Assembly (NCBI GenBank): GCA_016179105.1
Contig: JACOSB010000054.1
Span: forward strand, 84 to 64,083
DNA: 64,000 nucleotides
Reading direction: 5' to 3'
Origin: Candidatus Acetothermia bacterium
GTDB lineage: Bacteria; Bipolaricaulota; Bipolaricaulia; RBG-16-55-9; DRXL01
The notes under the pieces are model-generated. The model was not told the DNA's origin. It ran no database searches and saw only the letters and a list, made by a program, of their open reading frames with translations. This document shows, piece after piece, positions 15,239-48,485 of this stretch; position 1 is the stretch's first letter, and each line of letters starts with the position of its first letter. The position numbers were made by a program, and so were the translations under genes.

Positions 15239-18200
15239 ATGATGCACTTATTGCTCTCTCTTTTATCAGTGCGAAGATGGACCTGCCTTGCGATAGTTTC
15301 ACTGATTGTTGGCGGGGTGGTCTGGCCGTTTGGGGCTTACGCTTCAGGCTCGCCGGTCGTTTCTTCCCATCCTCGCATCTTGCTCACACCCAGCATCAAA
15401 GCCCAGCTGCTCGCGAAGAAGAACGCGAACGATCCTATGTGGTTGGCGTTGAAAGCAGAAGCTGATGCACTCGTGATGTACTCGATTTTGCAGTACAAAT
15501 ACGCGACGCGCACTCAAGAGCCGGACAATACTATTTTCTATGACTACCAAGGCTCCGGCTGGTATGACGCTGCGATGCCCTTGGCGCTCGCGTTCCAGAT
15601 GACCGGCGACACCAAATACTCGGACAAACTCTTGGCGCTCGCCGACGAGATGCTCCGCGCGCAGTCAGACCCTGCCAATAACCCGCCCAACGGTCGCCCG
15701 CCGCTCCAGCCCGATAATTACTACCCCACCCGCTATTTGGGTCCTGTCATTGCCATTATCTTTGACTGGTGCTACGATCAATTGGGCGCAACGCGCAAAG
15801 CCCAACTCGTCTCTTTGATGAACGCCTATTTTGACGACCTGCGCGCGAACGCTTATCAAGCGAACGACCACGCCGACGGCAATTATTTCGGCGGCCATCT
15901 CGCCGCCGCGGCGTTCATGGGCTATGCGTCCTACGGAGACAACTCACGCGCCCAAGAGATGATCGACTACGCGCGCCTGCGCTTCGACGGCACGCCCAGC
16001 AATCTCGTCGATCCGTCGAACGTTCCCGAAACGAACTTTGCTCAGCTCTTCGAGGGCGGCTACAAGCCGGACATTGCTCTCGGCTGGAATGGGCCGAATA
16101 TCACAACAGCTCCCTTCAAAGGTGGCTTTGACTTTCAAGGCTGGGCCTACGGGACGGGGAACTACGTTCGTATCATTGATTATCTACTTGTCGTAAAAAG
16201 CGCCACGGGCGAAGACTTGGTTGCGCAACACTCATCTTGGTTTTCCCAAATCTTGCGCGCGCAAAAGCACGCGCTCTTGCCCAATCACTTCGAGATTGAC
16301 CCGATGGGCGACTGGGGCGGTAACTTTGGCGATGTCATCATTCGCAGCCTGCCGATCCGCATCGCGTATGTCTTGGCGGGAACTCCCGATGGCCCAGGCG
16401 CACAGCACTTTGCTTCTGCTGAAATCGCGGCACACTCGCCCTATCCCGACTTCTATGACTCTGTGTATCAAAAATATTTTCAGCCCAGCCCCTGGGAAAA
16501 TTTTTACTTCACTGACATGACTCGACCGTCAGAAGAGTTAACACTTCCGCCGTACTACACGGGCTTTGGCCCAGCGTACCCCCAAGCAGGGCAGATCAAC
16601 GGCGCTCTGCCCTATTTTATTATGCGCAGCGACTGGGGGACGAACGCGACCTGGGCTTCGCTCAGCATGGGCGCGGCCTACTATGACGACCACCAGCACC
16701 ACGACGCTGGAAGTTTTTCCATCAAGCACGGCAACGATTATTTGTTGATCGATGCGTCCAATTGGAAAGGCGATGCCGGCTCGATCGGCATCGTCGGTAG
16801 CTCAACTGAAGCAGATGCGACGGCGGCTGCCAACACCCTGTGGCTCAACGATTTCGGTGACTTCCAGAACGATTATTATCTGTACTCCGGCGGCCAAGGA
16901 TTCTGGGGCAAGGATGAAATTGTAGCCGACGAACAGAACGATACTTATTCTTATGTGCGCGGCGATCTCTCGACAGCTTACAACCGCAGCGCAGACCCAG
17001 CCGATCAAGTCGGTCGCCCGATCGAATACTTTTATCGAAGCTTCCTCTATTTGCGCTCGGCCAATCTCTTCATCAGTTACGACCAAGTGAAAGCAAAAAA
17101 CTCCACGAACCCGCTCGGACAATACCACAAGCATATTCGCTGGCATTTCCCGACTCAGCCCGCCATCAACGGGAAACGAGTGCAAGTTAGCCAAGGCGCG
17201 TCGCGTCTTTATCTCGACACGCTCCTGCCTAGCTCAGCGTCGATCACGGCCATCGATGAGTCACACAACCCCGACCCGTGCGACGGCTCAGTCGCCGGTT
17301 GCACGCCCTATGATAATTGGTTCAACAACAGCGGCACCTGGCGCATCGAAGTGAAAGATTCTAATAACCCGCTCTTCATCCCATTTCTGACTGTGATCCA
17401 AGTCGGGGATAATTCAGCTCCGGCGATGAACACGACGCTTCTGAATTCGCTCGATTCAAAGATGGTCGGTGCTCAAATTTCTCAGCCGAACGGGCAAATA
17501 AATATCGTTTTTTTCAACAATCAATCCGGGCAAGTGCCCACCCCTCTTACCAATACTTCGTATAATTTTTCTGGCCCCGACACAGCCATCCACACGCTGA
17601 TGGGCGTCGTGCCCAACGCAAAGTACGCTGTCTCGTTCGCGAACTCAGCCGTCACGGTTGTCCAAGACAATTCCGGGAACTTCACAGCTTCTCCAGCGGG
17701 CGTTTTGCAGTTCACTGTGAATAGCAATGGCGGCGGGGGCGGCGGTCCCACTTCTTTCACGCTCACAGTAAGCAAATCGGGCACGGGCAGTGGGAAAGTC
17801 ACCAGCTCGCTTCCCGGAATAGACTGTGGTCCCCACTGTTCGTTCAGCTATGCCAACAATACCGTCGTCACACTGAAAGCCACGCCGGATGCTAATGCTA
17901 CATTTGACGGCTGGAGCGGGGCGTGCACAAATACAACGGGAGATTGCGCTGTGACGATGGACGCAGCCAAGTCCGTCACAGCGAGTTTTACTCTTATCGT
18001 TGGGACGACTTGCCCCGGCGTGACCGTCTCGGTGAGCCCGAGCTCTGTTACCTATAAGCCAACTGACAGAAAACCGGCGCGCAAAGCGATACGCCTCACC
18101 CTTCTCAACAAGAGCGGCGCGAGCCGCACGGTTACAGAGATTTCAGCACTGCCGGGTGCACTCTTTACGATTGTGAGCATTAGCCCTACGCTCGGGCGAG

Positions 18201-18622
18201 CCATCCCTAACGGACGGCGACTCACTTTTACCGTTCGCACCCAGCGAGGGGCGGGACTGGCCCAAGCCACCGCGAGTCCTCCCTATTTTTCGGTCTCGCT
18301 GGACTGCGGGCTCTTGCCCCAAACTAATTCCTTGCTCTCTCCCGTTCCACTCAGCGTCAACGAGCTCCGTCTAGAACTGAAGAGCGGCCAGTTGTTCTTG
18401 CAGGCCGAGGGAGCGGGAATCGCATCGGTACGATTACAACTCTTCACCCTCGGCGGCCGGATTGTCGTCGATAAGACAAATGAAGAAAATTCACTCACTT
18501 TGTCGGTTGAAGATAACAAAGCCTTGTTGCCGAACGGTATCTATCTTTACGTAGTGAGCGTGCGCGGGCAGAAAGGTGAGCTCTTGCGCAGCGAAGTGCG
18601 AAAAATTGTCGTCATCCGATAA
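15239..18622 (+). CDS. Large secreted protein: heparinase II/III-like lyase region, InlB-B/Flg_new-like repeat, basic Cys-bracketed domain and T9SS-like CTD
   Basis: Signal peptide ending AYA; HPRILL; MRSDW...HQHHDAGSFSI...YLLID; LTVSKSGTGSGKVTS...FDGWSGAC; C-terminal LPNGIYLY...RKIVVIR. Confidence 0.8.
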   Translation: MMHLLLSLLSVRRWTCLAIVSLIVGGVVWPFGAYASGSPVVSSHPRILLTPSIKAQLLAKKNANDPMWLALKAEADALVMYSILQYKYATRTQEPDNTIFYDYQGSGWYDAAMPLALAFQMTGDTKYSDKLLALADEMLRAQSDPANNPPNGRPPLQPDNYYPTRYLGPVIAIIFDWCYDQLGATRKAQLVSLMNAYFDDLRANAYQANDHADGNYFGGHLAAAAFMGYASYGDNSRAQEMIDYARLRFDGTPSNLVDPSNVPETNFAQLFEGGYKPDIALGWNGPNITTAPFKGGFDFQGWAYGTGNYVRIIDYLLVVKSATGEDLVAQHSSWFSQILRAQKHALLPNHFEIDPMGDWGGNFGDVIIRSLPIRIAYVLAGTPDGPGAQHFASAEIAAHSPYPDFYDSVYQKYFQPSPWENFYFTDMTRPSEELTLPPYYTGFGPAYPQAGQINGALPYFIMRSDWGTNATWASLSMGAAYYDDHQHHDAGSFSIKHGNDYLLIDASNWKGDAGSIGIVGSSTEADATAAANTLWLNDFGDFQNDYYLYSGGQGFWGKDEIVADEQNDTYSYVRGDLSTAYNRSADPADQVGRPIEYFYRSFLYLRSANLFISYDQVKAKNSTNPLGQYHKHIRWHFPTQPAINGKRVQVSQGASRLYLDTLLPSSASITAIDESHNPDPCDGSVAGCTPYDNWFNNSGTWRIEVKDSNNPLFIPFLTVIQVGDNSAPAMNTTLLNSLDSKMVGAQISQPNGQINIVFFNNQSGQVPTPLTNTSYNFSGPDTAIHTLMGVVPNAKYAVSFANSAVTVVQDNSGNFTASPAGVLQFTVNSNGGGGGGPTSFTLTVSKSGTGSGKVTSSLPGIDCGPHCSFSYANNTVVTLKATPDANATFDGWSGACTNTTGDCAVTMDAAKSVTASFTLIVGTTCPGVTVSVSPSSVTYKPTDRKPARKAIRLTLLNKSGASRTVTEISALPGALFTIVSISPTLGRAIPNGRRLTFTVRTQRGAGLAQATASPPYFSVSLDCGLLPQTNSLLSPVPLSVNELRLELKSGQLFLQAEGAGIASVRLQLFTLGGRIVVDKTNEENSLTLSVEDNKALLPNGIYLYVVSVRGQKGELLRSEVRKIVVIR

Positions 18623-19423: not shown

Positions 19424-20137
19424 ATGAACGCTAAGAGAAGTTGCATCGTATTCGCGTCGCTGGCCGTGCTAGTGCTCGGCCTAGCGCTGATCGCCGTCCC
19501 GGCCCAGGCGATTTCCATCCCGATCAATTGCGGTTCGAGCTTTTTCGCTTACGTGGGATTCCATTCTATAATGTGCGTGAACCCCATCACGGGTTTCTCC
19601 GGATTATTGGACAAGAACCCTTCGTTGAGCTGTGTCGGTTATGGTGCCAACCAGAAGCAGAATGGCCAGATCTTCATCGATAAAGCCGACTGTCTTTCGT
19701 TCTCCATTATTACTGGTCCTCTTATCGTCACCGGGGGGCCAACGGGGATCACGCTCTCAGCCTTCGCCTGGCCGTGCCGCCTCATCGCGAACGTGTTAAA
19801 GCGCAACAACCAGTTTTTAGACAAGTCTAAGCTCATCCCTATCTTTAACAGCCCTGGCTGCACTTTGAATCTCTCAAGTCGACTGACAGTGGTGCCCGCA
19901 GCGGAGCGCAGTAGCCAGAGCAAGCCGCTAGAAGCGATGACCGCGCAAGTTTATAACCTGCGCGGCCGGCTCGTCTACGAGAGCAACACGGCAGCCAGTC
20001 CGAGCCTGATCGAGACGGCGCTGAAGAGCGTCAGCCAGCAGTTGGCCCCGGGCGTCTATCTGGCCGTAGTAAGCACGCGGGGGAACCAGGGCGAACTGAT
20101 CCGCCGCGAGGTGCGTAAGCTGGTCGTCACCCGATAA
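19424..20137 (+). CDS. Secreted Cys-containing protein with T9SS-like CTD
   Basis: AGGAGGA RBS; signal peptide ending AQA; C-terminal VYNLRGRLV...LAPGVYL...RKLVVTR. Confidence 0.75.
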   Translation: MNAKRSCIVFASLAVLVLGLALIAVPAQAISIPINCGSSFFAYVGFHSIMCVNPITGFSGLLDKNPSLSCVGYGANQKQNGQIFIDKADCLSFSIITGPLIVTGGPTGITLSAFAWPCRLIANVLKRNNQFLDKSKLIPIFNSPGCTLNLSSRLTVVPAAERSSQSKPLEAMTAQVYNLRGRLVYESNTAASPSLIETALKSVSQQLAPGVYLAVVSTRGNQGELIRREVRKLVVTR

Positions 20138-20179: not shown

Positions 20180-23100
20180 ATGAAGTGTAAGAGATCCCAA
20201 TACGTTTTTAGTATTCTGTTCTTGGCCATCGCGATCGTCGCGGTGGCTCCGTGGTCGGCTCAGGCCAATCCACCCCCAGTGCGCATACATGTCAACTCGA
20301 CACTTGACACAGTCGATGCGGCACCGGGCAATGGCATCTGCGATGATGGCGGTGGCAACTGCACGCTGCGCGCGGCGATCCAGGAGGCGAACGCCGGCGT
20401 TAACTTCGGTGTAGAGAATATCATCGAGTTTAGCATCCCATCGGCCGGCAACGCCTGCGTCTCCGGCGTCTGCACCATCACGATAGCTACTCCGCTACCA
20501 GCCTTGACTGACTCCCAACCGACGATCATCGACGGCACCACGCAGCTGCCCGCCTGTGGCAGTTTCTGCATCGTAGTCACTGGAAATCCTGTCGGCGCCA
20601 CCTTCACGATCAAGTCTGATAACAACGTGATCCGGGGCTTGGTCATTAACGGGAACACAAGTGACCCCGCGATCTTGATTACGGCTACTGGCGCTCCGGG
20701 CGGGACCGCCAACAAAAACAGCATCTTGCAAAACAAGATCGACGCCAACGGCGTCGGCGTCCGCATCGCCGCCTCTGGCGCCGGAACGACTAACACCAAT
20801 GACAACTGCATCGGCGGCCTCACAGGCGTCAATGACCTCACAAGCGAAACCTTCAGGTCCTGTGACCCCATCGCCGCCGTTGTGTATCCATCCCTCTTGG
20901 ACGGAGGCAGCGGCAACCTCATCACCAACCACAGCACTGCCGGCATCCAGGTCACGTTAGGCTCAGATGGTAACGTCATCATCGGCAACGTCATCGGTGG
21001 CGGTAACGGCATCGGCATTTCGGATGATAGCGACAGCTTTACTACCATCGGCGGTGTCCCCGGCGGCTTGCCGGCCGGCCCACTGCCTAAGGGCAACATA
21101 ATCAACGCTAACACGGGCGACGGTATCCAGCTTAACAACAACGTTTCTGGAACCTGTGGAGGTCCCGCCGGTTGCGGCACGAACATCGCAGGTAACATCA
21201 TCGGGTCAGTGGGCAGCGGGAACGGTGGTCACGGCATTCATGTCCTGGCCACCAATAACGCTCAGCAGTGCATCGGCGGAATCTTCAGCGGCACCTGCGG
21301 CGGCGGAGGTGTGTCCGGAAATAGCATCACCGCTAACATCCTCGCCGGCGTCAAGATCGACGCCACCACGATTGCGAATGACATCATTGGCAACACCATA
21401 AACTTCAATGTCTTGGACGGTGTTCGCATTGACCCATCGTCGAATCAATGCATCGGCGGCACGATCGTCGCGGGCGTCTGTACGCCCTCCGCCGGCACAG
21501 GCAACGTCATCAACAGCAACCTGGCCAACGGTGTCAGCATCGACGGCAACAACAACACCGTCATTGGCAACTGCATCGGATCAGGGCCGACGGTGGCCGC
21601 CTGCAACCTCCCGGGCCTGGGGAACGCCTTGGACGGCGTGCTGATCTTCTCCAGCGGAGGATCATCCCATGACAACGTGATCGGCGGTACGACCGATGCA
21701 GCCCGCAACATCATCAGCGGCCAGAATTCCGGGTTTGCCGGAGTGCACATCTCGGGGACCGTCGGCCCTGGAGCTGCCAACAATAACAGCGTGCTGGGCG
21801 ACTACATCGGCACCGACGGCGCGGGCACGGGCGCTAACGGCAACACTGTTGGCGTGGTAATCGAAGCACCGCTCAATAGCAGCAAGGCGAACAACAACTG
21901 CATTGGCGGTCTGATCGTCGGCGGTGTCTGCATACCGCAACTGGGAGCCCTGAATAACTTCCCGACCAACCTGGCGGGCAACCTGATTAACGCTAATGGC
22001 ACAGGTGTGTTTCTTATTGGCGGTGCGGACGGGAACAACATCATCAGCAACTTCTTCGGGCTCGACAAGACCGGAAACGCCGGGGGGGGACCCTTGGGTA
22101 ACGCTGTCGGGATCGCGGATGCTAGCGACAGCTTCACCTGCATCGGCGCTTCCAACTCGCTACCGGGTGGGTGTGTGCCGGTCAGCGGCACGATCAACGG
22201 CCGCAACATCATCAGCGGTAGCAGCCTCTTCGGCATCAAGATTTTCGAACTGATCCCCGGCGACACGGTCAATGACACCATAATTGCCAACTACATCGGG
22301 ACCGACAGGACAGGCACCATACCAGTGCCCAATCAGGTAGGAGTCTTCCTGGACCCCTCGAGCTTCAACCAGGTCGGCGGGGATGCCTTCGCCAACCCGC
22401 TCGTCCGCAACGTGATCAGCGGCAACAGCGCAGTCGGTGTCCTCATCACCGGCGTCGAGGGCCCACCGTTGACGATCACCTCGACGCACAACAGCGTCCA
22501 GGGCAACTTGATCGGGACGAAGTCCGACGCGGTCTCACCCCTGCCCAACGGCGCCGGCGTAGTGCTGGCGCTCGGCGCTCAGGACAACAACGTCGGTGAC
22601 GGCTCACTGGCCGACGCCAAGTGCAATCCGGGCCTGGGCAACGTCATCGCTTTCAATCTCGCCCATGGCGTGAACGTGGACGGCATCACGAGCTTCCACA
22701 ATAGGATCCGCTGCAACTCGATCCATGACAACGGCGGCGTGGGCATCTCGCTGACTCACCACGCCAACAACGACATCCCGCCACCGACAGTCACGGCCAC
22801 CTCGACGATCGACGGCACGGCCAAGGGCGGGAGCATCGTCGATGGCTACAATGACAATGGCGCTCAGGGTGGGACCTACATCGGCGAGGACCTCGCCAAC
22901 ACCAACTGCAACGGCGGGGGCATCTGCCAGTACACGATCACCGGCAGCAACCCCAACAAGAACGCGACAGCCACGCAGACCGATGCGCTGGGCGATACGT
23001 CGGCGTTCTCCAAAGAGCTGGCCACCAACCATGCGCCCACGGCGCTGGCTGGTAATGATGCAACCGTCCATGCGGGCATCCCGGTCACCCAGACGGGCAA

Positions 23101-24253
23101 CTGCACCGACCCTGACGCTGGCCAGACCTGTACCTTCGCTTGGTCCTTGGTGGGGGCGAACACGGCCGCTTGCAGCTTCGCCAGCCCGACCAACCAGCAG
23201 CAGGTCACGGTCAACACCAACTTAGGACCGGGGGCCTGCACGGTGCAACTGGTCGTCACGGACAATGGCAATCCGAACTTGCCGAGCGCTCCGGACAGCT
23301 TCCAGATCACCACGACGAACAACCCGCCCTTCTTCGCCAGCCCGGTCGATCAGACCGTGGTGGCGGGGCAGAGCGTAACGCTGGACTCGGGCGCTAAGGA
23401 CCCGGATGTGGATTCGCTCACTTATCTGTGGTCCTTGCCCGGCGGCGCCGGCACAGCCGGTTGCTCCCTGCCCGGACCGAACAACAACTCGACCGTGAAA
23501 GTGAACACGAGCGCGGTCGGCACGTGCCAGGTTCGCATAGACGTCAGCGACGGGCACGGCGGCACGGCCAACACGACCGTCACGATCACCACAGTCGTAG
23601 CGATCGTCTGCAACGTCTCCGCTGCCACTGTTCCTGTCTCGGATCCGATCAGGTTCCGCAGGAACCAAACCCGGCAGATTGACCTGACGGTGACCAACGC
23701 GGCCAGCAGCACCGGCGCCGCGACGATCACCGGCATCGCGGCGATCGCGGGCCTTAACCTCTCGGTCACTCAGGTGCTCTTTGGCAAGAAGAAGCTGCTG
23801 CCAGCCTTCAGCATCACGCTGCCGATCGGATCGCAGCAGACCTTCCGGGTGAGGATCAAGTCCTCGGTCAAGCAGACCTTGAGCCCACCGTTCGTTCAGG
23901 TGGCGGGTCTGTGTGGAGCAGTAGCCTTCAACACCCCGGCGAACGATCGGCTGCTGCACTTCGTGCCGGCGCTGCGACTCACGCTCGAGCAGCTGGCGGT
24001 GCGAGTGCAGGCGGGCCAGATCGTAGCTGAGGCGCAGGGCGCGGGCATCCGCAGCCTGCAGCTGCAGGTCTTCGACGCGAACGGACGGTTAGTCGTAGAC
24101 CAGACGGTTGAGGCCGCTCAGCTGAGCCTGTCGGCGGTTGACCGGAACGGAAAAGCGTTAGCCAACGGTGTTTACATGGCTGTGATCACCGTGCAGGGCA
24201 ACGACGGCAAGATACTGCGCAGTGGGGTGAAGAAGCTCCTCGTCCTGCGCTAG
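20180..24253 (+). CDS. Secreted CSLREA-type, parallel beta-helix adhesin-like protein with PKD/Ig-like domains and T9SS-like CTD
   Basis: Signal peptide ending AQA; VNSTLD...CTLRAAIQEAN; many GNxI/IGG/RNIISG repeats; NHAPTALAG and LTYLWS PKD-like motifs; LANGVYM...KKLLVLR. Confidence 0.85.
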   Translation: MKCKRSQYVFSILFLAIAIVAVAPWSAQANPPPVRIHVNSTLDTVDAAPGNGICDDGGGNCTLRAAIQEANAGVNFGVENIIEFSIPSAGNACVSGVCTITIATPLPALTDSQPTIIDGTTQLPACGSFCIVVTGNPVGATFTIKSDNNVIRGLVINGNTSDPAILITATGAPGGTANKNSILQNKIDANGVGVRIAASGAGTTNTNDNCIGGLTGVNDLTSETFRSCDPIAAVVYPSLLDGGSGNLITNHSTAGIQVTLGSDGNVIIGNVIGGGNGIGISDDSDSFTTIGGVPGGLPAGPLPKGNIINANTGDGIQLNNNVSGTCGGPAGCGTNIAGNIIGSVGSGNGGHGIHVLATNNAQQCIGGIFSGTCGGGGVSGNSITANILAGVKIDATTIANDIIGNTINFNVLDGVRIDPSSNQCIGGTIVAGVCTPSAGTGNVINSNLANGVSIDGNNNTVIGNCIGSGPTVAACNLPGLGNALDGVLIFSSGGSSHDNVIGGTTDAARNIISGQNSGFAGVHISGTVGPGAANNNSVLGDYIGTDGAGTGANGNTVGVVIEAPLNSSKANNNCIGGLIVGGVCIPQLGALNNFPTNLAGNLINANGTGVFLIGGADGNNIISNFFGLDKTGNAGGGPLGNAVGIADASDSFTCIGASNSLPGGCVPVSGTINGRNIISGSSLFGIKIFELIPGDTVNDTIIANYIGTDRTGTIPVPNQVGVFLDPSSFNQVGGDAFANPLVRNVISGNSAVGVLITGVEGPPLTITSTHNSVQGNLIGTKSDAVSPLPNGAGVVLALGAQDNNVGDGSLADAKCNPGLGNVIAFNLAHGVNVDGITSFHNRIRCNSIHDNGGVGISLTHHANNDIPPPTVTATSTIDGTAKGGSIVDGYNDNGAQGGTYIGEDLANTNCNGGGICQYTITGSNPNKNATATQTDALGDTSAFSKELATNHAPTALAGNDATVHAGIPVTQTGNCTDPDAGQTCTFAWSLVGANTAACSFASPTNQQQVTVNTNLGPGACTVQLVVTDNGNPNLPSAPDSFQITTTNNPPFFASPVDQTVVAGQSVTLDSGAKDPDVDSLTYLWSLPGGAGTAGCSLPGPNNNSTVKVNTSAVGTCQVRIDVSDGHGGTANTTVTITTVVAIVCNVSAATVPVSDPIRFRRNQTRQIDLTVTNAASSTGAATITGIAAIAGLNLSVTQVLFGKKKLLPAFSITLPIGSQQTFRVRIKSSVKQTLSPPFVQVAGLCGAVAFNTPANDRLLHFVPALRLTLEQLAVRVQAGQIVAEAQGAGIRSLQLQVFDANGRLVVDQTVEAAQLSLSAVDRNGKALANGVYMAVITVQGNDGKILRSGVKKLLVLR

Positions 24254-25535: not shown

Positions 25536-28500
25536 ATGCAAATTCTAAAATCGCGCGGCGTGGTTGTCAGTCTGTTTCTGGTGTTTGGGTTACTCTTCGG
25601 TCAAACGACTGAAGCGTTTGCGACCTCCGTCAAGCCCCTCAATCTCGAAGACCTGGTGTCCGGCGCTGAGCTCATTTTCATCGGCAAACTCCTCTCAGCC
25701 AATAGTTTTATCGATCTGAACGGGCTACCGGTCACTGAGTACGAATTTGAAGTGCTCCACCCCATCAAAGGCAGCGCGGACTCAACGATCACGATCCGTC
25801 AGTTTGGGCTGCGCGAGGCCGACTTCGCCACGGGCCGAGCCCCAGCTTATCCGGGTGTTCCGACCTATGAAATAGATGGTGTCTATCTGCTCTTCGTGAA
25901 TGGAGAAAGTCGATTCGGCCTGCGCAACGCCGTCGGCTTGGGCCAGGGCGCTTTTTCCGTGTTTCAACAAATGACAGACCAGGGCGATTTAGAAATACGC
26001 GCCGTCAATGCCTATAACAATGCTGGGCTTTTCAAAAATACTCGTATTCTGAACCGCCTCAATCTAAACCCGAACGAGCGCGTTCTCTTGCAATCTCGGG
26101 GCGATCTGCTGCCGATCGATTCGTTTGTTTCGCTCGTCGAAAAATTTGTCGAAAAAATGACACCCGCTCAGTTCGTGGCACCGCGCGGACCGAGCGCGGT
26201 CCCCCTCTCCGTGCGATTGGCCGATACACTCGGCAAAGCACCGGCAGAAGAAACGCCTTCGGAAGATTTAGAAAAACCTCTCCAAGGTCCGCTGGTCGTC
26301 GCGAGCGACGGCAGCCCCTACGTCTGGGATATCCCCTCAGCGACCAACCCGAGTGGGTCATTGACAGCAATTCCCTATAACCCCGATGGTGATCTGACGG
26401 ATCCTGTCTTGGGCACCTTAGGCAAGGCCGGCGCTGATGCCGCTGTGGCTAGTTTGTTCAACGGCTGGACGGCCGATTCAGGCGTGGGAGGCCAAGTTCC
26501 CACAACCTCCGTTAAATTTGTGAATGCCGGGAATCTCCCCGTCGATTGCACCGCGAGCAACATCACGGCGACCGGGTGCCTGCCCAACTTCGCCGACGGC
26601 TTCAACCCGATCATCTATGACGAAGATGGCAGTATCACCCGCGCGCTCTTTGGCAGCGGAGCCGAGTGCAGCATTCTGGGCTTTGCCGGTCCCGATTTTG
26701 TCGATTCCAGCCATCACATCGTCGAAGCGAGCGCCACCCTTAACGGCATCTGGATCGATGGCCAGAGCAACTCTGCCCAGTGCAACAGAAATACAGAAAT
26801 TTCTCAGGATGAATTTCTGGGCGTCTTCGCCCATGAGTTCGGGCACTTCTTCGGGCTCGACCACACCCAGATCAATCTCAACCTCTATCTGAATAATGCC
26901 AATCTGGTCATTGGGTCTACGAATTACGGAGTCCCTCCCGTTCAGTCGATTGCGACGATGGAACCGTTCATCGCCGGACAAGACGCTCGGTCCCTAGAGA
27001 CCGACGACAAAGCTTCGGTCTCGCGGCTCTATCCGGCCTTGGATGGCAGCTTCAGTAATACCCTTGGCTCGATCAGCGGAAAAATCCTGCGCTCGGATGG
27101 AGTCACGCCCTTCGATTGTGCCAACGTCATCGCCCGCGACCTGAGTGACCCGTTCCATAAAGCCGTCTCGGGCCCCTCGGGCGACCGAGGTTCTACCAAG
27201 GGCGGAGCCTTTGGCTTACGTGGCGTCTATGAGATTGTGGGCTTGCCACCGGGAAGCTATGCGGTCAAAGTCGAGCGCATTCGCTCCAACTTCATCAACG
27301 GTTCTTCAGTAGGCCCTTGCAACTCGAGCCAGCCTTCTCTCCCAAGCCCTGAAGAATTCTGGAACAGTGCTGAAAGCTCGAGTGACAATCCCGGCGATTT
27401 CACAGCGCTCACGATCAACGCCGGGACGGCCTTTACTGGCATAGACATCATTCTCAACGCTGCTCCTGCGGTTGATCTCTCTGTCTCCCAGACTGTCGCT
27501 CCCACGCAAGGCACGGTGGGGAACAAACTGACTTACACGATCACCGTCACCAACAACGGCCCCACAGCAGCCACCAATGTCTCTCTAACGGATACCCTGT
27601 CGGGAAACTTCACCGTCGTCTCTGCTGTGCCCAGCCAGGGGAGTTGTAATCTCCCCAGCCCCATCAACTGTAGCCTAGGCACTCTCAACAATGGGGCTTC
27701 GGCAGGGGTTACTCTCAGTCTCACTCCCACCGCGGCTGGAACGATCACGAGCACCGCCACGGTCTCGGCGACTCAGCCCGACTCCAGTCCCGCGAACAAT
27801 TCATCCGTGGTCAGCACCAGCGTCAACGCGACGACCGATCTGTCGGTAGTCCAGTCGGGTTCACCTAATCCCGCAATTGTCGGGAACCCTCTGACTTACA
27901 CGATCACGGTCACCAACAACGGTCCCGCGACTGCCACCGGCGTCACGGTGAGTGATCCCTTGCCCACGGGTGTCACGTTTGTCTCGGCTTCCTCCGGCTG
28001 TACGCTCTCGGGGAGCACGCTCACCTGTGGGGTGGGCACTCTGGCGAATGGGGGGAGCGCGATCCTCACGCTCATCGTCACCCCCACTGCGGCGGGTCTA
28101 TTGAGCAACACAGCCAGCGTGACCAGCAGCGTCACAGACCCCAACATGATCAATAACAACGCTATGGCTAGCATCACAGTGAATCCTCCACCTTGCGCGG
28201 GTGTGACGTTGACAGCCTCGCCGGCCACGATCGTTTACACCAAGAGCCGCCAACGCAAGACGGTAAGTGTCACCATCGCCAATAGCACAAGCAATCCCAT
28301 CACCGTGATAGGTTTCGCTCCTCAAGCCGGACAGCCTTTCAAAATCATCAGTGTCAGCCCAAGCCTGAAGAAGAATAGCAACAAAACTATCAAGCCCGGC
28401 GTTGTGAAGACTTTCGATGTCAAGACGCAAGGACCATCCACGGCCTCAGCCATCCCAGCGACGGCGAACGCGCCGTACCTCACCACGACGCTCAGCTGTG

Positions 28501-28808
28501 GCACGGTCACCTCCGCGAGCACATTGCCCTCGTTCTCTCTGGACGACCTAAGTATCAGAACCGACGGTGCTTCGATAGAGATCACTGCCCAGGGCCAAGG
28601 TATTGATTCAATGACAGCGCGCGTCTATGATTTGAAGGGTCGCTTAGTGCTCGTAGACCAGAGCGAGAGTGCAAGGCTCACCATCGAGATCGCCGACGCT
28701 GGCAGAAAGCTTCTGGCCAACGGTATCTATCTCGCTCTGATCACTGTGCGTAATAGCGATAACACAATCAAGCATAGCGAGATCAAGAAAATTTTGATCC
28801 ACCGGTAA
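25536..28808 (+). CDS. Secreted metzincin metalloprotease with two DUF11 Ig-like domains and T9SS-like CTD
   Basis: Signal peptide ending AFA; HEFGHFFGLDH plus Met-turn (ATMEP); two DLSV...LTYTITVTNNGP repeats; LANGIYL...KKILIHR. Confidence 0.88.
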   Translation: MQILKSRGVVVSLFLVFGLLFGQTTEAFATSVKPLNLEDLVSGAELIFIGKLLSANSFIDLNGLPVTEYEFEVLHPIKGSADSTITIRQFGLREADFATGRAPAYPGVPTYEIDGVYLLFVNGESRFGLRNAVGLGQGAFSVFQQMTDQGDLEIRAVNAYNNAGLFKNTRILNRLNLNPNERVLLQSRGDLLPIDSFVSLVEKFVEKMTPAQFVAPRGPSAVPLSVRLADTLGKAPAEETPSEDLEKPLQGPLVVASDGSPYVWDIPSATNPSGSLTAIPYNPDGDLTDPVLGTLGKAGADAAVASLFNGWTADSGVGGQVPTTSVKFVNAGNLPVDCTASNITATGCLPNFADGFNPIIYDEDGSITRALFGSGAECSILGFAGPDFVDSSHHIVEASATLNGIWIDGQSNSAQCNRNTEISQDEFLGVFAHEFGHFFGLDHTQINLNLYLNNANLVIGSTNYGVPPVQSIATMEPFIAGQDARSLETDDKASVSRLYPALDGSFSNTLGSISGKILRSDGVTPFDCANVIARDLSDPFHKAVSGPSGDRGSTKGGAFGLRGVYEIVGLPPGSYAVKVERIRSNFINGSSVGPCNSSQPSLPSPEEFWNSAESSSDNPGDFTALTINAGTAFTGIDIILNAAPAVDLSVSQTVAPTQGTVGNKLTYTITVTNNGPTAATNVSLTDTLSGNFTVVSAVPSQGSCNLPSPINCSLGTLNNGASAGVTLSLTPTAAGTITSTATVSATQPDSSPANNSSVVSTSVNATTDLSVVQSGSPNPAIVGNPLTYTITVTNNGPATATGVTVSDPLPTGVTFVSASSGCTLSGSTLTCGVGTLANGGSAILTLIVTPTAAGLLSNTASVTSSVTDPNMINNNAMASITVNPPPCAGVTLTASPATIVYTKSRQRKTVSVTIANSTSNPITVIGFAPQAGQPFKIISVSPSLKKNSNKTIKPGVVKTFDVKTQGPSTASAIPATANAPYLTTTLSCGTVTSASTLPSFSLDDLSIRTDGASIEITAQGQGIDSMTARVYDLKGRLVLVDQSESARLTIEIADAGRKLLANGIYLALITVRNSDNTIKHSEIKKILIHR

Positions 28809-38564: not shown

Positions 38565-38672
38565 TAGCTTTCGTGCACCAAAGCCGATTTATATTTCGCC
38601 CGCAGCAATTTTTTCTCAATAAACGCCACATATTCTTTGCCACTCATTGAACACTTAATACTATTTTGCCTT

Positions 38673-41462: not shown

Positions 41463-41857
41463 TCCTTTTTCTGCTGTTCTTGCACTTTCAATGCTTCAAA
41501 TTCGGCTACTTTTTGCAATAACCAGTTCGCTATGACTTTAGCATCAGGTGCACTCATCACAACTCCGACTTGAAACTCTCTAGTTATATCTACAGTTCCA
41601 GGGGTCTTTGTCTGAGTAATCTGTTCACCCAAGCCACCGCCCTCTGTTACTTTTCTGATTTCTTCCTTTGGGGCGGTGGCATACTCTATGAAAAAATCAC
41701 ATTTCAGACCTTGTGCAGTAACTCCTCCGTAAACCCCAGTTGCTGCTATAACTCTATAATCATTTGCCATCTTGTAAGTGAATCTTACTTTATCGGGTAG
41801 TTTACCAATAGACTCTGCCACAAGTTCCTTTCTCAAGTAGATGTCAAGTATATTCAT
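41459..41857 (-). CDS. Hypothetical small beta-strand protein with C-terminal helix (DUF3467-like pattern)
   Basis: YRVIAATGVYGGVT...CDFFIE...REFQVGVVMSAPDAKVIANWL; ATGA overlap with the next gene. Confidence 0.65.
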   Translation of the reverse strand: MNILDIYLRKELVAESIGKLPDKVRFTYKMANDYRVIAATGVYGGVTAQGLKCDFFIEYATAPKEEIRKVTEGGGLGEQITQTKTPGTVDITREFQVGVVMSAPDAKVIANWLLQKVAEFEALKVQEQQKKE

Positions 41858-41981
41858 TCTACTATACCCAGACTTTTACATCAAAGTCACGAAAAATTTC
41901 GCATACTTTTGAGGCAAAGCCGCAATCGCTCAAATAAATAAGTAAATTATGCTTATTTTAAGATATTTATAAACAAAAGTA

Positions 41982-42010
41982 TTGACAAATTATATTTGCT
42001 GTGCTATACT
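41982..42010 (+). promoter_or_regulatory. Sigma70-type promoter of the MFS gene
   Basis: TTGACA-17 nt-TATACT with TG extension. Confidence 0.8.
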
Positions 42011-42042
42011 TAGGCCGCAGATCCGCCAAAGGAGGGTTCACC

Positions 42043-43398
42043 ATGAACGCGACAAAAACTTTTAAGAGACTTGCCAGCTCTCTGCGCCAATTCACTACTC
42101 CTTCCGTCGAACGAGAAGCCACGGGCTTGACTGGTTACATCCAAAAAATAAAGCTCTTCAGCTACAACGCGCGGCTCTATCTTCTTCACGTGATCGGGAT
42201 GGACCTGATCCACGGCACCTGGGATGTGATCTTCAATCTCTACTTGCTCGCGGCTGGTTTTGGCGTCGATTTTATCGGCTTACGCATTTTAATCAGCGGA
42301 GTCTCGCGCTCGATCGCCGCGATCCCGATGGGCTGGGTCTCAGATCGCATCGGGCGCAAAGCCGGGTTTATTCTGGGAGATGGCATCGGCGCAGCCATAG
42401 CCCTTGTCCAGATTATGACCGTGAACCCCGCTGTCTTGCTCGTCGCTCCGGTGATTGGGAGCTTCTTTGGTGCGTTGCACGAGGTCACCGAGCCGGCCTT
42501 CATGGCCGAGAACAGCGAGAAGCGCGAGCGTGTTCATCTCTTCAGCGTCTCGGATGGCCTGCGTACGCTCTCGGCGATGGTTGGTAGTCTGATCGCTGGC
42601 TTCTTGCCCCTCTGGGTCGCGAATGCGTTTGGTTTTAACAAACTCGATGCCTATCGCATCGCGACGTTCATCGGCATCGCCTGGTGGTTCCTCTCGCTCG
42701 CTCCTGCGGTGATGTTGCGAACATATCAGCGACCTGAAACTGTGTTGAACACTAAGCACCCGAAAGGTTTCTCGGCGCTCTGGAAGAACGTGAAGAATCC
42801 AATACTTATCGCGCGGTTTGTGACGGTCGATGCTCTCATCGCGCTCGGCGCGGGCTTCGTCGTCCCGCTCTTCAACGTGTTTTTCAAAGAAGGCGTGCAC
42901 GCGCATGAGCACGAGATCGGTGTCACGTTTGCGACGGGCTCCGCTTTCTTGGCGATCGCTGCCCTGCTCTCGCCTTTCGTCGTCGAACGACTTGGGAAAG
43001 TGCGGGCCGTCTTTTACACGCGCTTGCTCTCAGTTCCGTTCATTCTGGTGATGGCCTTCGCCCCGGAAGTCGGAGCAGACGTCGGCGCGCTCTCCGTGCT
43101 CTCGGTGGCGGGCATGGCCTACGTCGCGCGCACGATGTTCATGAATATGTCGAACCCAGCGGCCTCGGCGTTCAGCATGGAGACGCTCGATCCGGGAGAG
43201 CGTGCAACATTTATAGGATTCTCGACAGCCGCTTATGGGGTCCTCACCGGGCTCGGAGGTTTGCTCGGCTCGCGCATGATGGACGCCGGCGATTTCCGCA
43301 CGCCCTTCCTCATCATGAGCGCGATGTATTTGCTCTCGAATGTGTTCTACTGGGTCTTTTTCCGAACGCTGGAGAAAGTTTCAGAGAACAAAATTTAG
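42043..43398 (+). CDS. MFS transporter
   Basis: GWVSDRIGRK motif A; about 12 transmembrane segments; AGGAGG RBS before ATG 42043. Confidence 0.9.
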   Translation: MNATKTFKRLASSLRQFTTPSVEREATGLTGYIQKIKLFSYNARLYLLHVIGMDLIHGTWDVIFNLYLLAAGFGVDFIGLRILISGVSRSIAAIPMGWVSDRIGRKAGFILGDGIGAAIALVQIMTVNPAVLLVAPVIGSFFGALHEVTEPAFMAENSEKRERVHLFSVSDGLRTLSAMVGSLIAGFLPLWVANAFGFNKLDAYRIATFIGIAWWFLSLAPAVMLRTYQRPETVLNTKHPKGFSALWKNVKNPILIARFVTVDALIALGAGFVVPLFNVFFKEGVHAHEHEIGVTFATGSAFLAIAALLSPFVVERLGKVRAVFYTRLLSVPFILVMAFAPEVGADVGALSVLSVAGMAYVARTMFMNMSNPAASAFSMETLDPGERATFIGFSTAAYGVLTGLGGLLGSRMMDAGDFRTPFLIMSAMYLLSNVFYWVFFRTLEKVSENKI

Positions 43399-43443
43399 TG
43401 AGCGGGCTGGCAAGCTTTCTCCTAGGTAATATAATGTCTGACC

Positions 43444-43469
43444 GTAGGGGCGAGGTTACTTCGCCCCAC
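43444..43469. repeat. GTAG-type REP-like palindrome
   Basis: GTAGGGGCGAGGTTACTTCGCCCCAC. Confidence 0.85.
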
Positions 43470-43480
43470 ACAAATCCAGT

Positions 43481-44101
43481 ATGAATGAAGAATTGCCGAC
43501 GACCCAGAAGATCAGTTTAGAGCGATACCTCCCGAGGATTTTCTGGAGCTTGCTCATTGGCGCACTGGTCGGGAGCGTCGGCGGTTTTCTCATTATTTTC
43601 TACTTCGCAAAAAATATCTGGTGCTACATCGGCGCATTAGTCGGCGGGGCACTAGGTGCTCTGCAAGTCGCGCGCATCTTGGCCTCGATGCTCAATCTCA
43701 ATGAGCAACAGCTCTATCATGGAGAGAACATCACCGGGCAATGGATCCGTCTGTACTGGCTTCTCAACTCGCACTTCTTGCTCGCCATGTATGGCGTCGT
43801 CGTCGGCTTCGTGCTCTCTTTGGGGCTCATGGTCTACGATACGTACAATTTGCCTCTTGTAAAAGGACAAGCCAAGGTAGTCAACGCTGAACTCGATCAA
43901 GAAGCTGCCTACCGGAGCGACGAATTCAAGGGGCGCGTTTATATAATCACTGTTCAAATGGGAACAGCTAAGCTAAACTATCACGTTGATATCGAGACTT
44001 ACGACCGTACGCGCGTGGAAGATATAGTGCAGATCGCTTACACCGAAAGTCGACTCTTCCACATCGTTCAGCTGCGTGACGTACACAAAGCATCTCAATA
44101 A
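43481..44101 (+). CDS. Hypothetical membrane protein with C-terminal beta domain
   Basis: Three hydrophobic segments followed by a short beta-rich tail. Confidence 0.65.
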   Translation: MNEELPTTQKISLERYLPRIFWSLLIGALVGSVGGFLIIFYFAKNIWCYIGALVGGALGALQVARILASMLNLNEQQLYHGENITGQWIRLYWLLNSHFLLAMYGVVVGFVLSLGLMVYDTYNLPLVKGQAKVVNAELDQEAAYRSDEFKGRVYIITVQMGTAKLNYHVDIETYDRTRVEDIVQIAYTESRLFHIVQLRDVHKASQ

Positions 44102-46157: not shown

Positions 46158-48485
46158 ATGAGATTCATTGCGGCGAGTTTTATGGTTTTTGCGGCAGTGT
46201 TCGCAGTGGGGATGATGGGATCGGATGCGCAGGCACAGACCACGCCCGCGTTTGCTTCTCCTTCCGGGTGCCGGACGACAACCCTCAAAAATACGTTGCT
46301 TTTCACCCAGGCCCGCACGGGCAACCCCGGGGACACGAGCGTTGTCGTCGGCGCGTACACCGTCACCGACGATGACCCCGAAGTCCAGGACACCGGATCG
46401 GTCGAGAACGCCAACTGCAACCCGGCTAGTTCTTCTGATGGCCATCCCACGCACGTCACGTCCATCACCGTCACGCTGGCGGGCGGCGACCTCGTCGCGG
46501 CCGACGTGCGCGCCGTAAAACTTCATCTCGACGGCAACCAAGATGGATTCATTCAAGCAGGCCAAGATCAACAGATCGGAAACGATCTGCCGGGTACGTG
46601 TTTATTCACGGAATGCGTCTTCAATTTCGGCCGCTCGACCCCGCTCTTCAGCGTCCACGATACTCAGACAGAGTCGCAAACGGCGACGGTCACTGAAAAT
46701 CCCTCCGAGGCGTTCATTATCTCGGTCGATCTTGGACCCAACGCGCGCGCGGGTGCCAATCTGATGATCAACGTGATGGCCGAGTCCAACGACATCGTCG
46801 TCCGCGGAGTAGATTCGGTCAGCTCCGACTTTAACGATACTTTTCGGAGCCAAACTTCTAATATCATTCTGAATAGTCTCACGGGCGGAGACAGTTTTGT
46901 CTTACGAGGAGTTAACAACGGCAGCGGCAATCCCGAGACGGGCATGAGGTCTGTCGAGTTTGATGGGCTTCTCACGCGCTTCCGCGACCAGAAGATCGTT
47001 CCGGGAACACGTGAGACTATCGCGGCCATGATCTATGTCTGCGAAGGAGGAACGCCTGTCACTCCCTCGGTCGTTATCTTGCCCGCGATCGCCAAGAGCG
47101 ATCCGACCATCGCTGGTTATCCCGATGTGCTTGCTTGTATCACTTCTTCTATCCCCGATACGATCGGCACGCGGTTGCTGCGCGTGCGCGTGGGCGTGAG
47201 CGGAAATTCGGGTGCGGTCGGCACGATGAGGCTTTACGACGACGCCAACGACAACGGTGTTCTGTTCGAGGGCGGCGAGCTCGTGCTGAGCGCTAATCCT
47301 GTGGGTGGGGTTGCCATCTTCGGTTCGCTCAACAACCCCTTGCTCTCTGGCACGCGCCCGAACGCCGAGCCCGCTCCGGGCGTATACGCCCCGCAAACCG
47401 GCCCTAACGTGACGCTCTGTGACTCTACTCAGGACAATCCCAAGCCGGGAGGTGCTTCGAAGGGTTGCCCACACTTACTGGTCTTCACCTTCGATGTCAA
47501 CAGCAACGCCCAACCCGGCGACGTGAATTTTGACATCGTACTGGACGTGGGCAACTTGCCGGGCGAGGGCACCGAGTCGGCCACGGCCTCATCGAACTTG
47601 ATCAGCACGGCCTCCACCCGCAGCAAAGTGACGATCGAAGCCCGCGAAATCATCACTCAACAAAAATCCCTATTGAAACTGACCGCGGAGCATTCGGGCA
47701 ATCCCAATGTCATTGAAGACGATGACATCTTCTGGGCGATGAGAAAGTGGACGAACAACGAGCCGCTCAATGACGACAATCTCAAAATCACAGACGGCGA
47801 TATGCTCACGGCCGTTCGTTATTGGTCCGATGGAACGAGCATCGCTGCAGCTACTCTTGGCGACAAGCGCTTTGGCACTCTGGCTACGTCTTTCGCAGTC
47901 AGCCAAAAAACGAGCGCTGTCACGGTCGCTCCGGGCGAGTCATTTTTAGTGACAACAACCATCGAGGGCAAGAGCGTGAACGGTCTCTTGATGAGCCCAA
48001 ACTTACCCGATGGCTGGACGGTCACGTCCGTGAAGAAGATAGATGCTGCTTTTAACGGGAGCGGTTGGCTCTGGTTAAATCTGAACGGGAAGATAACAGT
48101 TACCTACAAAGTGATAGTACCTGCTAGCGCGAAAAACGGCCTCTACACAATCGGTGGACAACTGAAAGTTGCGTCTCCGGCTTATGAAGCAGCGATGAAG
48201 AAGATCATCGTGAGAGTGGCGGGTGATCCCGTGGCTCTAAAAGTGAATGAGATTCACTTAAGCAATGGCGAGTTCATCGTCGAGGGTGCAGGCATCAGCA
48301 GCACGAGCATTGAGCTCTTCAGCTTGAGCGGCGCAAAGCTTTTTGCTGGCTCCGCTGAGGGCAATCGTGTCATGCTGAGCAACGCTGGCAGTCTAGCGAA
48401 TGGCGTTTATTTGTATCTGGTGACGATCAGGGGTACAGACGGCACATTGATTCGGCGGTTCAACAAACTCATCGTCCGACATTAA
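46158..48485 (+). CDS. Acidic secreted surface protein with dockerin-like duplicated motif and T9SS-like CTD
   Basis: Signal peptide ending AQA; LHLDGNQDG and LYDDANDNG loops; IEDDDIFWAMRKW / ITDGDMLTAVRYW; LANGVYLY...NKLIVRH. Alternative start 46116. Confidence 0.75.
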   Translation: MRFIAASFMVFAAVFAVGMMGSDAQAQTTPAFASPSGCRTTTLKNTLLFTQARTGNPGDTSVVVGAYTVTDDDPEVQDTGSVENANCNPASSSDGHPTHVTSITVTLAGGDLVAADVRAVKLHLDGNQDGFIQAGQDQQIGNDLPGTCLFTECVFNFGRSTPLFSVHDTQTESQTATVTENPSEAFIISVDLGPNARAGANLMINVMAESNDIVVRGVDSVSSDFNDTFRSQTSNIILNSLTGGDSFVLRGVNNGSGNPETGMRSVEFDGLLTRFRDQKIVPGTRETIAAMIYVCEGGTPVTPSVVILPAIAKSDPTIAGYPDVLACITSSIPDTIGTRLLRVRVGVSGNSGAVGTMRLYDDANDNGVLFEGGELVLSANPVGGVAIFGSLNNPLLSGTRPNAEPAPGVYAPQTGPNVTLCDSTQDNPKPGGASKGCPHLLVFTFDVNSNAQPGDVNFDIVLDVGNLPGEGTESATASSNLISTASTRSKVTIEAREIITQQKSLLKLTAEHSGNPNVIEDDDIFWAMRKWTNNEPLNDDNLKITDGDMLTAVRYWSDGTSIAAATLGDKRFGTLATSFAVSQKTSAVTVAPGESFLVTTTIEGKSVNGLLMSPNLPDGWTVTSVKKIDAAFNGSGWLWLNLNGKITVTYKVIVPASAKNGLYTIGGQLKVASPAYEAAMKKIIVRVAGDPVALKVNEIHLSNGEFIVEGAGISSTSIELFSLSGAKLFAGSAEGNRVMLSNAGSLANGVYLYLVTIRGTDGTLIRRFNKLIVRH

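Follow-up and report, generated by a model that had tools for sequence, protein, structure and literature searches.

Five secreted proteins of a Candidatus Acetothermia bacterium share a tail domain that probably serves a compact relative of the type IX secretion system

In a 64,000-nucleotide stretch of DNA from a Candidatus Acetothermia bacterium (contig JACOSB010000054.1; the whole stretch is called the window here), five plus-strand open reading frames (ORFs), with stop codons at 18622, 20137, 24253, 28808 and 48485, encode secreted proteins that end in the same domain. [quoted passage not shown] An earlier, sequence-only reading of the window had proposed that, in a Bipolaricaulota-like host, such tails would point to a divergent T9SS or to another pathway dependent on a C-terminal domain (CTD). 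That proposal is supported, and a candidate for the machinery is present on contig C47 of the source genome. The five proteins, with coordinates in the window, are as follows.

Cargo 1, 15239..18622, plus strand: 1127 residues; signal peptide, heparinase II/III-like lyase region, InlB B-repeat, pre-CTD module and CTD at 18404-18619 (residues 1056-1127).
Cargo 2, 19424..20137, plus strand: 237 residues from the ATG at 19424 (longest ORF from 19382); signal peptide, small passenger with seven Cys residues and CTD at 19913-20134.
Cargo 3, 20180..24253, plus strand: 1357 residues from 20180 (longest ORF from 20153); signal peptide, CSLREA N-terminal domain, long Gly/Asn-rich repeats, two PKD/Ig domains and CTD at 24032-24250.
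Cargo 4, 25536..28808, plus strand: 1090 residues; signal peptide, HExxH zinc metalloprotease region, two DUF11 repeats, pre-CTD module and CTD at 28587-28805.
Cargo 5, 46158..48485, plus strand: 775 residues from 46158 (longest ORF from 46116); signal peptide, passenger that matches no family and CTD at 48279-48482.

The description of these proteins as carriers of Sec-type leaders and unrelated passengers is borne out by their translations and by family scans. Cargo 1 and Cargo 4 begin with leaders composed of an n-region, an h-region and an AxA-like site, and the internal ATGs at 19424, 20180 and 46158 give cleaner leaders than the longest ORFs do (MNAKRS.., MKCKRSQ.. and MRFIAAS.., respectively). 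Among the passengers, Cargo 3 matches TIGR04214 (E=1.2e-8) and PKD (E=8e-14), and the repeats of Cargo 4 match DUF11 (E=1e-54). The last ~73 residues of the five proteins share 27-43% identity with the first sequence. The three motifs attributed to this region, (V/L)(Y/F)xxxGxx(V/L), L(A/P)(N/P)G(V/I)Y and a terminal K(L/I)xxx(R/H), hold in the five-tail alignment, with invariant G, L, G, Y and K residues inside them; the near-terminal Lys is identical in all five tails. A fourth element, G(A/Q)GIxS, had been placed upstream of the domain. It is present, yet it forms the first strand of the same domain and is no separate element. Directly before the tail, at least 13 CTD proteins carry a further module of ~110-130 residues (blastp E 2e-20 to 2e-4). 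This pre-CTD module is assigned to no family and is found in the window at 17980-18400 (lyase-like protein) and 28180-28580 (protease), as well as in ~11 other CTD proteins of the source genome.

Judged by sequence, the window tail is a divergent member or a near relative of the type A CTD family (TIGR04183/PF18962). The curated cut-offs of the two models are 23 bits (TIGR04183) and 27 bits (PF18962). By hmmscan, TIGR04183 scores 17.0 bits for Cargo 1, 21.2 for Cargo 2, 19.6 for Cargo 3 and 14.4 for Cargo 5, all below the cut-off, and gives no match at E<=1 for the protease Cargo 4, which is matched by PF18962 alone (15.2 bits). PF18962 matches three of the five tails at 14.1-16 bits, again below its cut-off. 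In a six-frame search of the genome, TIGR04183 gives 24.1 bits for Cargo 3 and 23.3 for Cargo 2, both above the cut-off, and 22.5 for Cargo 1; the other two tails are not among the matches listed. The resemblance to TIGR04183 therefore holds at the level of a related family, with the window tails themselves at or just under the cut-offs and two of five over it in the six-frame search only. The relationship to type A tails is firmer for the genome as a whole, where the same search finds 43 tails at E<=0.001 and 30 of them reach the TIGR04183 cut-off; three of these 30 pass only when summed with in-frame neighbours, and two of them are window tails. The type B tail model has no match on the five window proteins, and the type C model has one weak match (E=0.028). 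Weak matches in the window tails also involve CHU_C, FlgD_ig and A2M_bMG2, as well as the PorU and PorZ models at their CTD ends. Since FlgD_ig, CHU_C and A2M_bMG2 appear at E-values comparable to those of the tail models, and the window tails lie below curated cut-offs by hmmscan, the domain might be a generic Ig-like or FlgD-like β-sandwich with a structural or carbohydrate-binding task and no role in sorting, its likeness to T9SS tails reflecting a shared fold. This explanation is very improbable: it does not account for the 30 of 43 genome tails at the TIGR04183 cut-off, nor for several features of position and partnership given below.

To count the domain across the source genome, a profile hidden Markov model (HMM) was built from the five window tails and searched against 20,819 six-frame ORFs. 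The search returned 117 domains at E<=1e-3, so that the likeness of the five tails is not due to chance; the 92-bit score of the Cargo 5 tail against this model is high by construction. Iterated to convergence, the HMM finds 125 domains in 124 proteins, whose genes are spread over dozens of contigs. The domain lies within 12 residues of the stop codon in 106 of the 124 proteins. A leader-like hydrophobic segment occurs in the first 80 residues of 92 of these 106 C-terminal carriers, compared with 624 of 1434 background ORFs of at least 300 residues, by a crude measure. Of the 100 proteins in which the domain ends no more than two residues from the stop, 92 have R, H or K as their final residue, and a Lys is found at positions -8 to -4 in 90 of the 106. 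A position next to the stop codon, together with the conserved Lys and the basic residue at the end, would not be expected of a generic sandwich, even though the domain is not strictly C-terminal. One contig (C63, 1293-41277) carries an array of ~21 same-strand CTD genes, closed by two pairs of a CTD gene followed by a gene for a PorV-like barrel.

The departures from the C-terminal position are of one main kind. In 17 of the 124 proteins, a copy of the domain lies near the N-terminus, always after a signal peptide; in only one protein is the domain internal, and a second internal copy belongs to a tandem pair whose host protein carries the domain at its end as well. All 17 N-proximal carriers are fibre- or adhesin-like paralogs; after the signal peptide and a short conserved strand comes the whole domain, K-L-x-V motif included. 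Their genes are found on contigs C112 (15.6-32 kb), C104, C110, C134, C137, C161, C60, C78, C8, C16, C120 and C67. It had been suggested that frequent internal copies, or copies in proteins that lack signal peptides, would speak against a sorting role; the domain does stray from the C-terminus in these 17 proteins, and all 17 nonetheless have the signal peptide. This arrangement suggests that the domain can serve as an N-terminal anchor, and it shifts the favoured mechanism from a strict C-terminal signal to a module that docks onto a carrier, with the link to T9SS retained. It also lends weight to an alternative in which the domain does nothing but fix proteins to PorV-like barrels at the surface, after export by some other route, and in which the 1446-residue protein described below is an attachment scaffold, with a PorZ-like propeller set on a barrel, or else a transporter of an unrelated kind: a domain directly after the signal peptide, in proteins that are all fibre or adhesin paralogs, is hardly a C-terminal export signal. 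Anchoring alone is considered unlikely, though it is the likeliest of the rivals, and further evidence on it is given with the cassette and the fold of its largest product.

The source genome (3.71 Mb in 166 contigs; completeness 93.2%, contamination 1.45%) encodes Omp85/BamA at 73.5 bits, above the model cut-off, which indicates a diderm host. One gene of its cassette has a 92%-identical ortholog labelled 'Candidatus Acetothermia bacterium' at NCBI, a name that NCBI taxonomy places in the phylum Candidatus Bipolaricaulota, not within the Fibrobacteres-Chlorobi-Bacteroidetes (FCB) group. Three sets of genomes were used for comparison: a sample of 121 Bipolaricaulota genomes spread evenly over the phylum (a single class, ten GTDB families, two single-contig genomes), 14 named controls that include Bacteroides thetaiotaomicron, Thermotoga, Thermus and Deinococcus, and two Cloacimonadota genomes as FCB positive controls. 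In a profile search, LpxC was found in none of the 121 Bipolaricaulota genomes; among the named controls, it was found in exactly the four producers of lipopolysaccharide (LPS). This result agrees with published descriptions of the envelope, as far as the excerpts considered go: those of a Bipolaricaulota genome analysis report an absence of LPS genes and a simple Thermotoga-like diderm envelope (PMC6092417), and those of the account of the first isolate describe a toga-like outer membrane with an S-layer (bioRxiv 10.1101/2025.11.21.689855). The label of the ortholog and the LpxC result both support the non-FCB host that had been assumed.

The canonical T9SS proteins are not recognized in this genome. 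The equivalog cut-offs are 200 bits for SprA (TIGR04189), 250 bits for PorV (NF033710) and 90 bits for the PorV/PorQ family (NF033709). SprA yields a single 23-bit match in the source genome and no match above the cut-off in the 121 genomes of the sample, whereas in both FCB controls it scores 434-450 bits on ORFs of 2027-2177 residues. Likewise, all 31 matches of the PorU model (NF033707) in the source genome fall at model positions 942-1095, the CTD end, and the C25-like catalytic part was not found; in the two FCB controls, the model aligns at positions 4-1094 with 579-585 bits. Canonical SprA and PorU were thus not found here by models that detect both in FCB genomes, and the genome is not an FCB genome with a canonical T9SS. 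The negatives for the motor and ring are of a different quality. GldL (TIGR03513) and GldM (TIGR03517) give no matches in the source genome, in searches that are uncontrolled, with none in any control either; as the GldM model is silent even in the two FCB genomes, where SprA and PorU are detected, these negatives carry little weight. GldK gives generic partial matches of the FGE-sulfatase type everywhere, none above the cut-off even in the FCB controls, and is uninformative. An assembly of 166 contigs at 93.2% completeness and 1.45% contamination leaves room for an ordinary T9SS in the unassembled 7%, or for an FCB contaminant as the source of the contig or of parts of the bin. Such an oversight is hardly credible. 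The tail domain is present in 119 of the 121 sample genomes, including the two single-contig ones, and the tails lie on dozens of contigs of the source genome; neither SprA above the cut-off nor LpxC is found in any genome of the sample, and the ortholog of the cassette gene carries the Acetothermia label.

The weak SprA match and a weak PorV match of the source genome fall in adjacent genes on contig C47, which belong to the following cassette.

S8 subtilase, C47 8287-10839, same strand as the rest of the cassette: 850 residues, ending in the same CTD.
PorV-like barrel, C47, between the S8 and big-protein genes: 331 residues; full-length match to NF033709 (E=1.9e-21, 77 bits), with a PorQ match of 63 bits.
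Big protein, C47 11932-16272: 1446 residues; signal peptide, linker rich in Pro and Gln, and faint matches to SprA, PorZ and porins.

Two further PorV-family barrels, those of contig C63, reach 87.9 and 74 bits on NF033709, and each is encoded directly after a CTD gene. On the PorV equivalog model, the barrels of the source genome score 28-42 bits. The ortholog of the cassette barrel in one sample genome (G068) scores 93.4 bits on NF033709, above the cut-off. Across the sample, the PorV family is present in 114 of 121 genomes, six of which exceed that cut-off; among the 14 named controls, NF033709 matches only Bacteroides thetaiotaomicron, and not Thermotoga, Thermus or Deinococcus. The family of the 1446-residue protein is also found in 114 of the 121 genomes, in essentially one full-length copy each.

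The gene order was compared in ~20 kb around the big gene in the source genome and 16 others. In 14 of these 17 loci, from seven of the ten GTDB families, the CTD-bearing S8 peptidase, the PorV-like barrel and the big protein follow one another on one strand, and in 18 further genomes, for which coordinates only were compared, a PorV-like gene lies directly upstream of the big gene. The cassette peptidases are orthologous over their full length (35-47% identity), with the catalytic triad D253/H333/S674 invariant in all 14 orthologs. No fourth conserved gene or energizer was found beside the cassette; only its own three families are common to at least 13 of the 17 loci. FtsH and Dxr are neighbours in seven of the 17. 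Every PorV-like gene in the fetched loci (22 of 22) follows a CTD gene on the same strand. This pairing, together with co-occurrence throughout the phylum, is a further point against a generic sandwich. It is also what an anchor would show, as the pairs recall PorQ-PorZ, PorV-PorU and SprF-SprB; on the other side, a big barrel that is single-copy and phylum-wide, and that shares an operon with a carrier and with a peptidase bearing a CTD, argues for export as well as anchoring. The locus of G027 was considered as an instance of the big protein with no carrier and was rejected, as a PorV-like fragment sits at the contig end. In G085 (contig C1), a 727-residue ORF upstream of the big gene matches no model used.

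The relation of the 1446-residue protein to SprA is faint by sequence. The match to TIGR04189 (23.3 bits) covers model positions 585-638 only. One weak SprA match of this kind (17-38 bits, positions ~584-714) is found in 101 of the 121 genomes, and it lies inside the big gene in all 23 matches compared. By hhalign, a profile of the big protein aligns with Cloacimonadota SprA over 104 columns (residues 477-585 with SprA 549-659; 84% probability, E=7e-6), and in the reciprocal direction the profile matches the SprA ORFs of both FCB genomes in the same segment, with no full-length ortholog there. Against PDB sequences, the profile finds a Reg_prop propeller (E=1e-24) and PorZ (E=0.11) only, with no match to SprA. 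A protein-cluster search with the big protein gives unnamed clusters only, one of which, at 0.88, has DUF6599 and Reg_prop on less than half of its members. With the propeller-free half as the query, phmmer against 1.84 billion representatives retrieves 240 proteins at E<=0.001, 80 of them at E<=1e-30 and mostly 1260-1500 residues long; the search also reaches proteins of 2157 and 1920 residues (E=1.2e-10 and 2.1e-6), with TIGR04189 scores of 159-168 bits over several stretches.

To examine the fold, the protein was modelled with AlphaFold2 in two parts. The model of residues 247-1446 (seven sequences; pLDDT 72.8, pTM 0.41) was compared by Foldseek with 350,542 PDB chains, and its top three matches are the SprA chains 8gl6_A, 6h3i_A and 8gl8_A (E=7.5e-13 to 1.7e-12) at a low TM of 0.23, with propeller proteins next. 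With VIA-align, a method independent of Foldseek, this 1200-residue model returns seven-bladed propellers only (Z~26-27) and is uninformative on the barrel; the propeller-free half was therefore folded separately. The resulting model of residues 89-640 (21 sequences; pLDDT 80.2, pTM 0.57) again has the three SprA chains first by Foldseek (E=1.1e-12 to 2.8e-10, TMq 0.40), the next match being a porin at 2.7e-4. VIA-align places SprA 6h3i_A first of 48,161 chains (Z 16.0, 427 aligned residues, rmsd 10.2), followed by ordinary porins with Z <=10.7 and ~210 aligned residues. Counted with DSSP on the two partial models, long strands number 9 + 4 + ~24-25, or ~37-38 in total; SprA is described as having 36 barrel strands in the sections consulted of PMC10994853. 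The models thus suggest that SprA is the best match to the big protein among solved structures. Its middle 300 residues form a seven-bladed Reg_prop propeller that aligns at Z~27 with Bacteroides sensor domains. PorZ, which shares the fold class of the propeller, matches weakly (E=0.11 by sequence; Foldseek rank 45). A propeller that matches Reg_prop sensors and, weakly, PorZ, and a motor not found in the uncontrolled GldL/GldM search, fit an anchoring role. The propeller-free half, which matches the SprA translocon clearly better than other barrels, does not, and no other outer-membrane route for more than 100 large folded proteins was identified, although secretins and other systems were not searched for. 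Apart from this comparison, ~65 residues of the big-protein insert also align to phage tail proteins by VIA-align (Z ~8.5).

The binding of the tail to its carrier was addressed by complex prediction, with controls, between residues 65-331 of the cassette barrel (alignment of 13) and the Cargo 1 tail (alignment of 17). The predicted complex has a median ipSAE of 0.71 (runs 0.75, 0.64 and 0.71), compared with 0.02 for the best control; the mark applied to this score is reached by 58 of 80 solved complexes and two of 110 mismatched pairs. At least 86% of the contacts are common to the runs, and the pLDDT of the partner is 69. The predicted contact residues of the tail (15, 17-23, 46-51, 53, 67-70, 72 and 74-75) are those of the three conserved motifs, including the near-terminal Lys. 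An interface that uses exactly the conserved motifs is not expected of a generic sandwich. According to the part of PMC10994853 consulted, the tail in the solved Flavobacterium complex is bound to loops of PorV within SprA, with the Lys near the tail end as the single conserved contact. Binding of CTD to carrier in Bipolaricaulota is accordingly a prediction of the models, and because SprA-PorV-CTD complexes have been solved, the score may reflect likeness to them rather than binding of this particular pair.

Taken together, and from computation, the best reading of the tails is that they act as signals for sorting and docking in a compact pathway, related to T9SS, outside the FCB group. In the proposed mechanism, cargo would be exported by Sec and would fold in the periplasm. 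The tail would then dock, through its three motifs and the near-terminal Lys, on extracellular loops of a PorV/PorQ-family barrel that sits at the SprA-like barrel, a protein of half the SprA length (1446 residues) with a built-in Reg_prop propeller. The carrier-cargo pair would exit through the SprA-like barrel, after which the cargo might be kept on the surface by its carrier or be freed by the CTD-bearing S8 peptidase, which would cut the tail and so act as a non-homologous stand-in for the PorU sortase. Retention on the carrier is suggested because all 22 PorV-like genes follow a CTD gene, because genomes have several carrier paralogs, and because the fibre proteins have the domain at the N-terminus with the C-terminus taken by another module. 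Release by the S8 peptidase is inferred from its operon position, intact triad and own tail, in parallel with PorU. Canonical PorU cleavage with attachment to anionic LPS is unlikely here; a phylum devoid of LPS, which the LpxC result suggests, would rule out LPS attachment. A more specific version is put forward tentatively, at somewhat less than even chances: a minimal T9SS-type machine with three protein components, namely a SprA-like pore of half length that contains a propeller, carriers of the PorV-like kind and a serine protease as 'sortase', with neither LPS nor the GldLM/PorKN motor and ring, and with a docking module that works at either end of a protein.

Several observations weigh against this pathway. 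None of its components in the source genome reaches an equivalog cut-off (big protein 23 bits against 200; barrels 74-88 against 90 and 28-42 against 250). The full cassette is missing from three of the 17 loci, with neither neighbour gene beside the big gene in G067 and G049 and convergent PorV-like genes in G023, and one genome of 85% completeness (G085) has the big gene with no match for tail, carrier or cassette peptidase. N-proximal copies, as in 17 of the 124 domain proteins, would not be compatible with a strict C-terminal export signal. No GldL or GldM homolog was found, in a search that is uncontrolled, and the motor is required to release substrate in the solved T9SS (PMC10994853, in the sections consulted). 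Both fold models cover only part of the protein, with moderate confidence (pLDDT 72.8 and 80.2; pTM 0.41 and 0.57), and superpose on SprA at a root-mean-square deviation (rmsd) of 10-27 Å. The segment of ~100 residues shared with SprA is not diagnostic alone because it is found in other proteins, namely 1090-residue Cloacimonadota ORFs and a 1784-residue protein with phage-tail matches. Finally, the docking score may reflect memory of the solved SprA-PorV-CTD complexes. As to the proteins that share the segment, the ORFs of 1090 residues are found in the two Cloacimonadota genomes (G001:C113 and G002:C32), and the phage-tail matches of the 1784-residue protein (P0102) are to tail-tube and distal-tail proteins.

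The window itself holds no secretion machinery, as had been noted from the sequence and as family scans of its genes bear out. The genes other than the five cargo genes include NfeD, Uma2, HerA-NurA-SbcCD-like, MFS, amine oxidase, YidC, WecG, Opp-type ABC and STAND-regulator genes. The following features were recorded.

14550-15119 and 24807-25520: genes for putative endonucleases of the Uma2 family (PF05685), each just upstream of a CTD cargo gene.
28846-35537, minus strand: operon of four genes, for HerA (DUF87), NurA, a SbcC/Rad50-like ATPase and a Mre11/SbcD-like phosphoesterase.
36000-44000: stretch with a G+C fraction of 0.44-0.48, compared with ~0.53 for the genome, that starts with an HTH_3 and M78/ImmA-IrrE fusion gene (36078-37277) and may be foreign DNA.
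59631-63999: AfsR-type STAND regulator (Trans_reg_C, BTAD, NB-ARC, TPR), followed by an ORF that runs past the window end.

In the sections consulted, T9SS reviews describe the system as confined to Bacteroidota or the FCB superphylum and as built of ~20 proteins, with a proton-driven motor and attachment to LPS. A literature search, which did not extend to supplementary gene tables, found, among the papers listed, none linking Acetothermia or Bipolaricaulota (or Thermotogota, Terrabacteria or Deinococcota) with T9SS; the one candidate, PMC8542988, was rejected, the co-occurrence of terms in it being a coincidence of its reference list. Among the papers listed for TIGR04183, Por_Secre_tail or PF18962, the parts consulted concern FCB bacteria or unrelated topics only. 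Of the Bipolaricaulota studies, the excerpts of PMC6092417 note Sec alone and report that adhesins were not found, and neither these nor those of bioRxiv 10.1101/2025.11.21.689855 mention such a system. A pathway as proposed would explain how a poorly known phylum, with LpxC found in none of the 121 genomes sampled, could export its surface proteins, of which there are more than 100 in the source genome. If the proposal is true, the core formed by SprA, PorV and CTD is of greater age or mobility than the FCB superphylum, and the cassette offers the simplest available model of such secretion, including release of substrate with no known motor. A phylum-wide relative of three genes in a Thermotoga-like diderm would widen the range of T9SS and would separate its core (tail, carrier and pore) from accessories, and the exit of substrate from the pore would become testable in a much simpler setting.

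Four known systems can be compared with the one proposed here. The attachment complex of Porphyromonas gingivalis consists of PorU, PorV, PorQ and PorZ. The complex is named in the sections consulted of PMC12365241 and PMC5562754. It resembles the Bipolaricaulota system in having a peptidase with its own CTD beside a PorV-like barrel, a partner that bears a propeller, and several PorV/PorQ-like paralogs, each paired with a CTD protein. The system described here differs in that the peptidase is an S8 serine protease, not a C25-like PorU, in a propeller that is built into the big barrel instead of standing alone as a CTD protein, and in the lack of an anionic LPS to receive cargo, as judged from LpxC in the 121 sampled genomes. 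In type B CTD proteins with PorP/SprF-like carriers, as described in part of PMC9143113, the gene of the carrier barrel likewise lies directly after that of the cargo, and the carrier holds the cargo non-covalently at the surface. In contrast, the tails studied here match type A (TIGR04183), the barrels match the PorV/PorQ family, and the type B model is silent on the window proteins. The T9SS of the two Cloacimonadota genomes shares many CTD-tailed proteins and the ~100-residue segment of SprA with the Bipolaricaulota system; in those genomes, however, SprA is full-length (434-450 bits), PorU is present (579-585 bits) and the 1446-residue protein has no ortholog. Lastly, the SprA-PorV translocon of Flavobacterium johnsoniae (PDB 6H3I, 8GL6 and 8GL8; PMC10994853, in part) is alike in the Sec leader, in a C-terminal β-sandwich tail of ~70-80 residues with the same motifs and near-end Lys, in a carrier of the PorV/PorQ family, in a putative giant barrel, of which two partial models show ~37-38 long strands (36 in SprA) and have SprA as their best structural match, and in the docking of the tail, predicted in the present case. 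The Bipolaricaulota system differs in its non-FCB phylum, in which LpxC was not found, and in that GldLM/PorLM, GldK and PorU are not recognized. Its big barrel has ~60% of the length of SprA, scores 23 bits and carries an inserted seven-bladed propeller; its genes lie in one operon, and its tail is also found at the N-terminus of fibre proteins.

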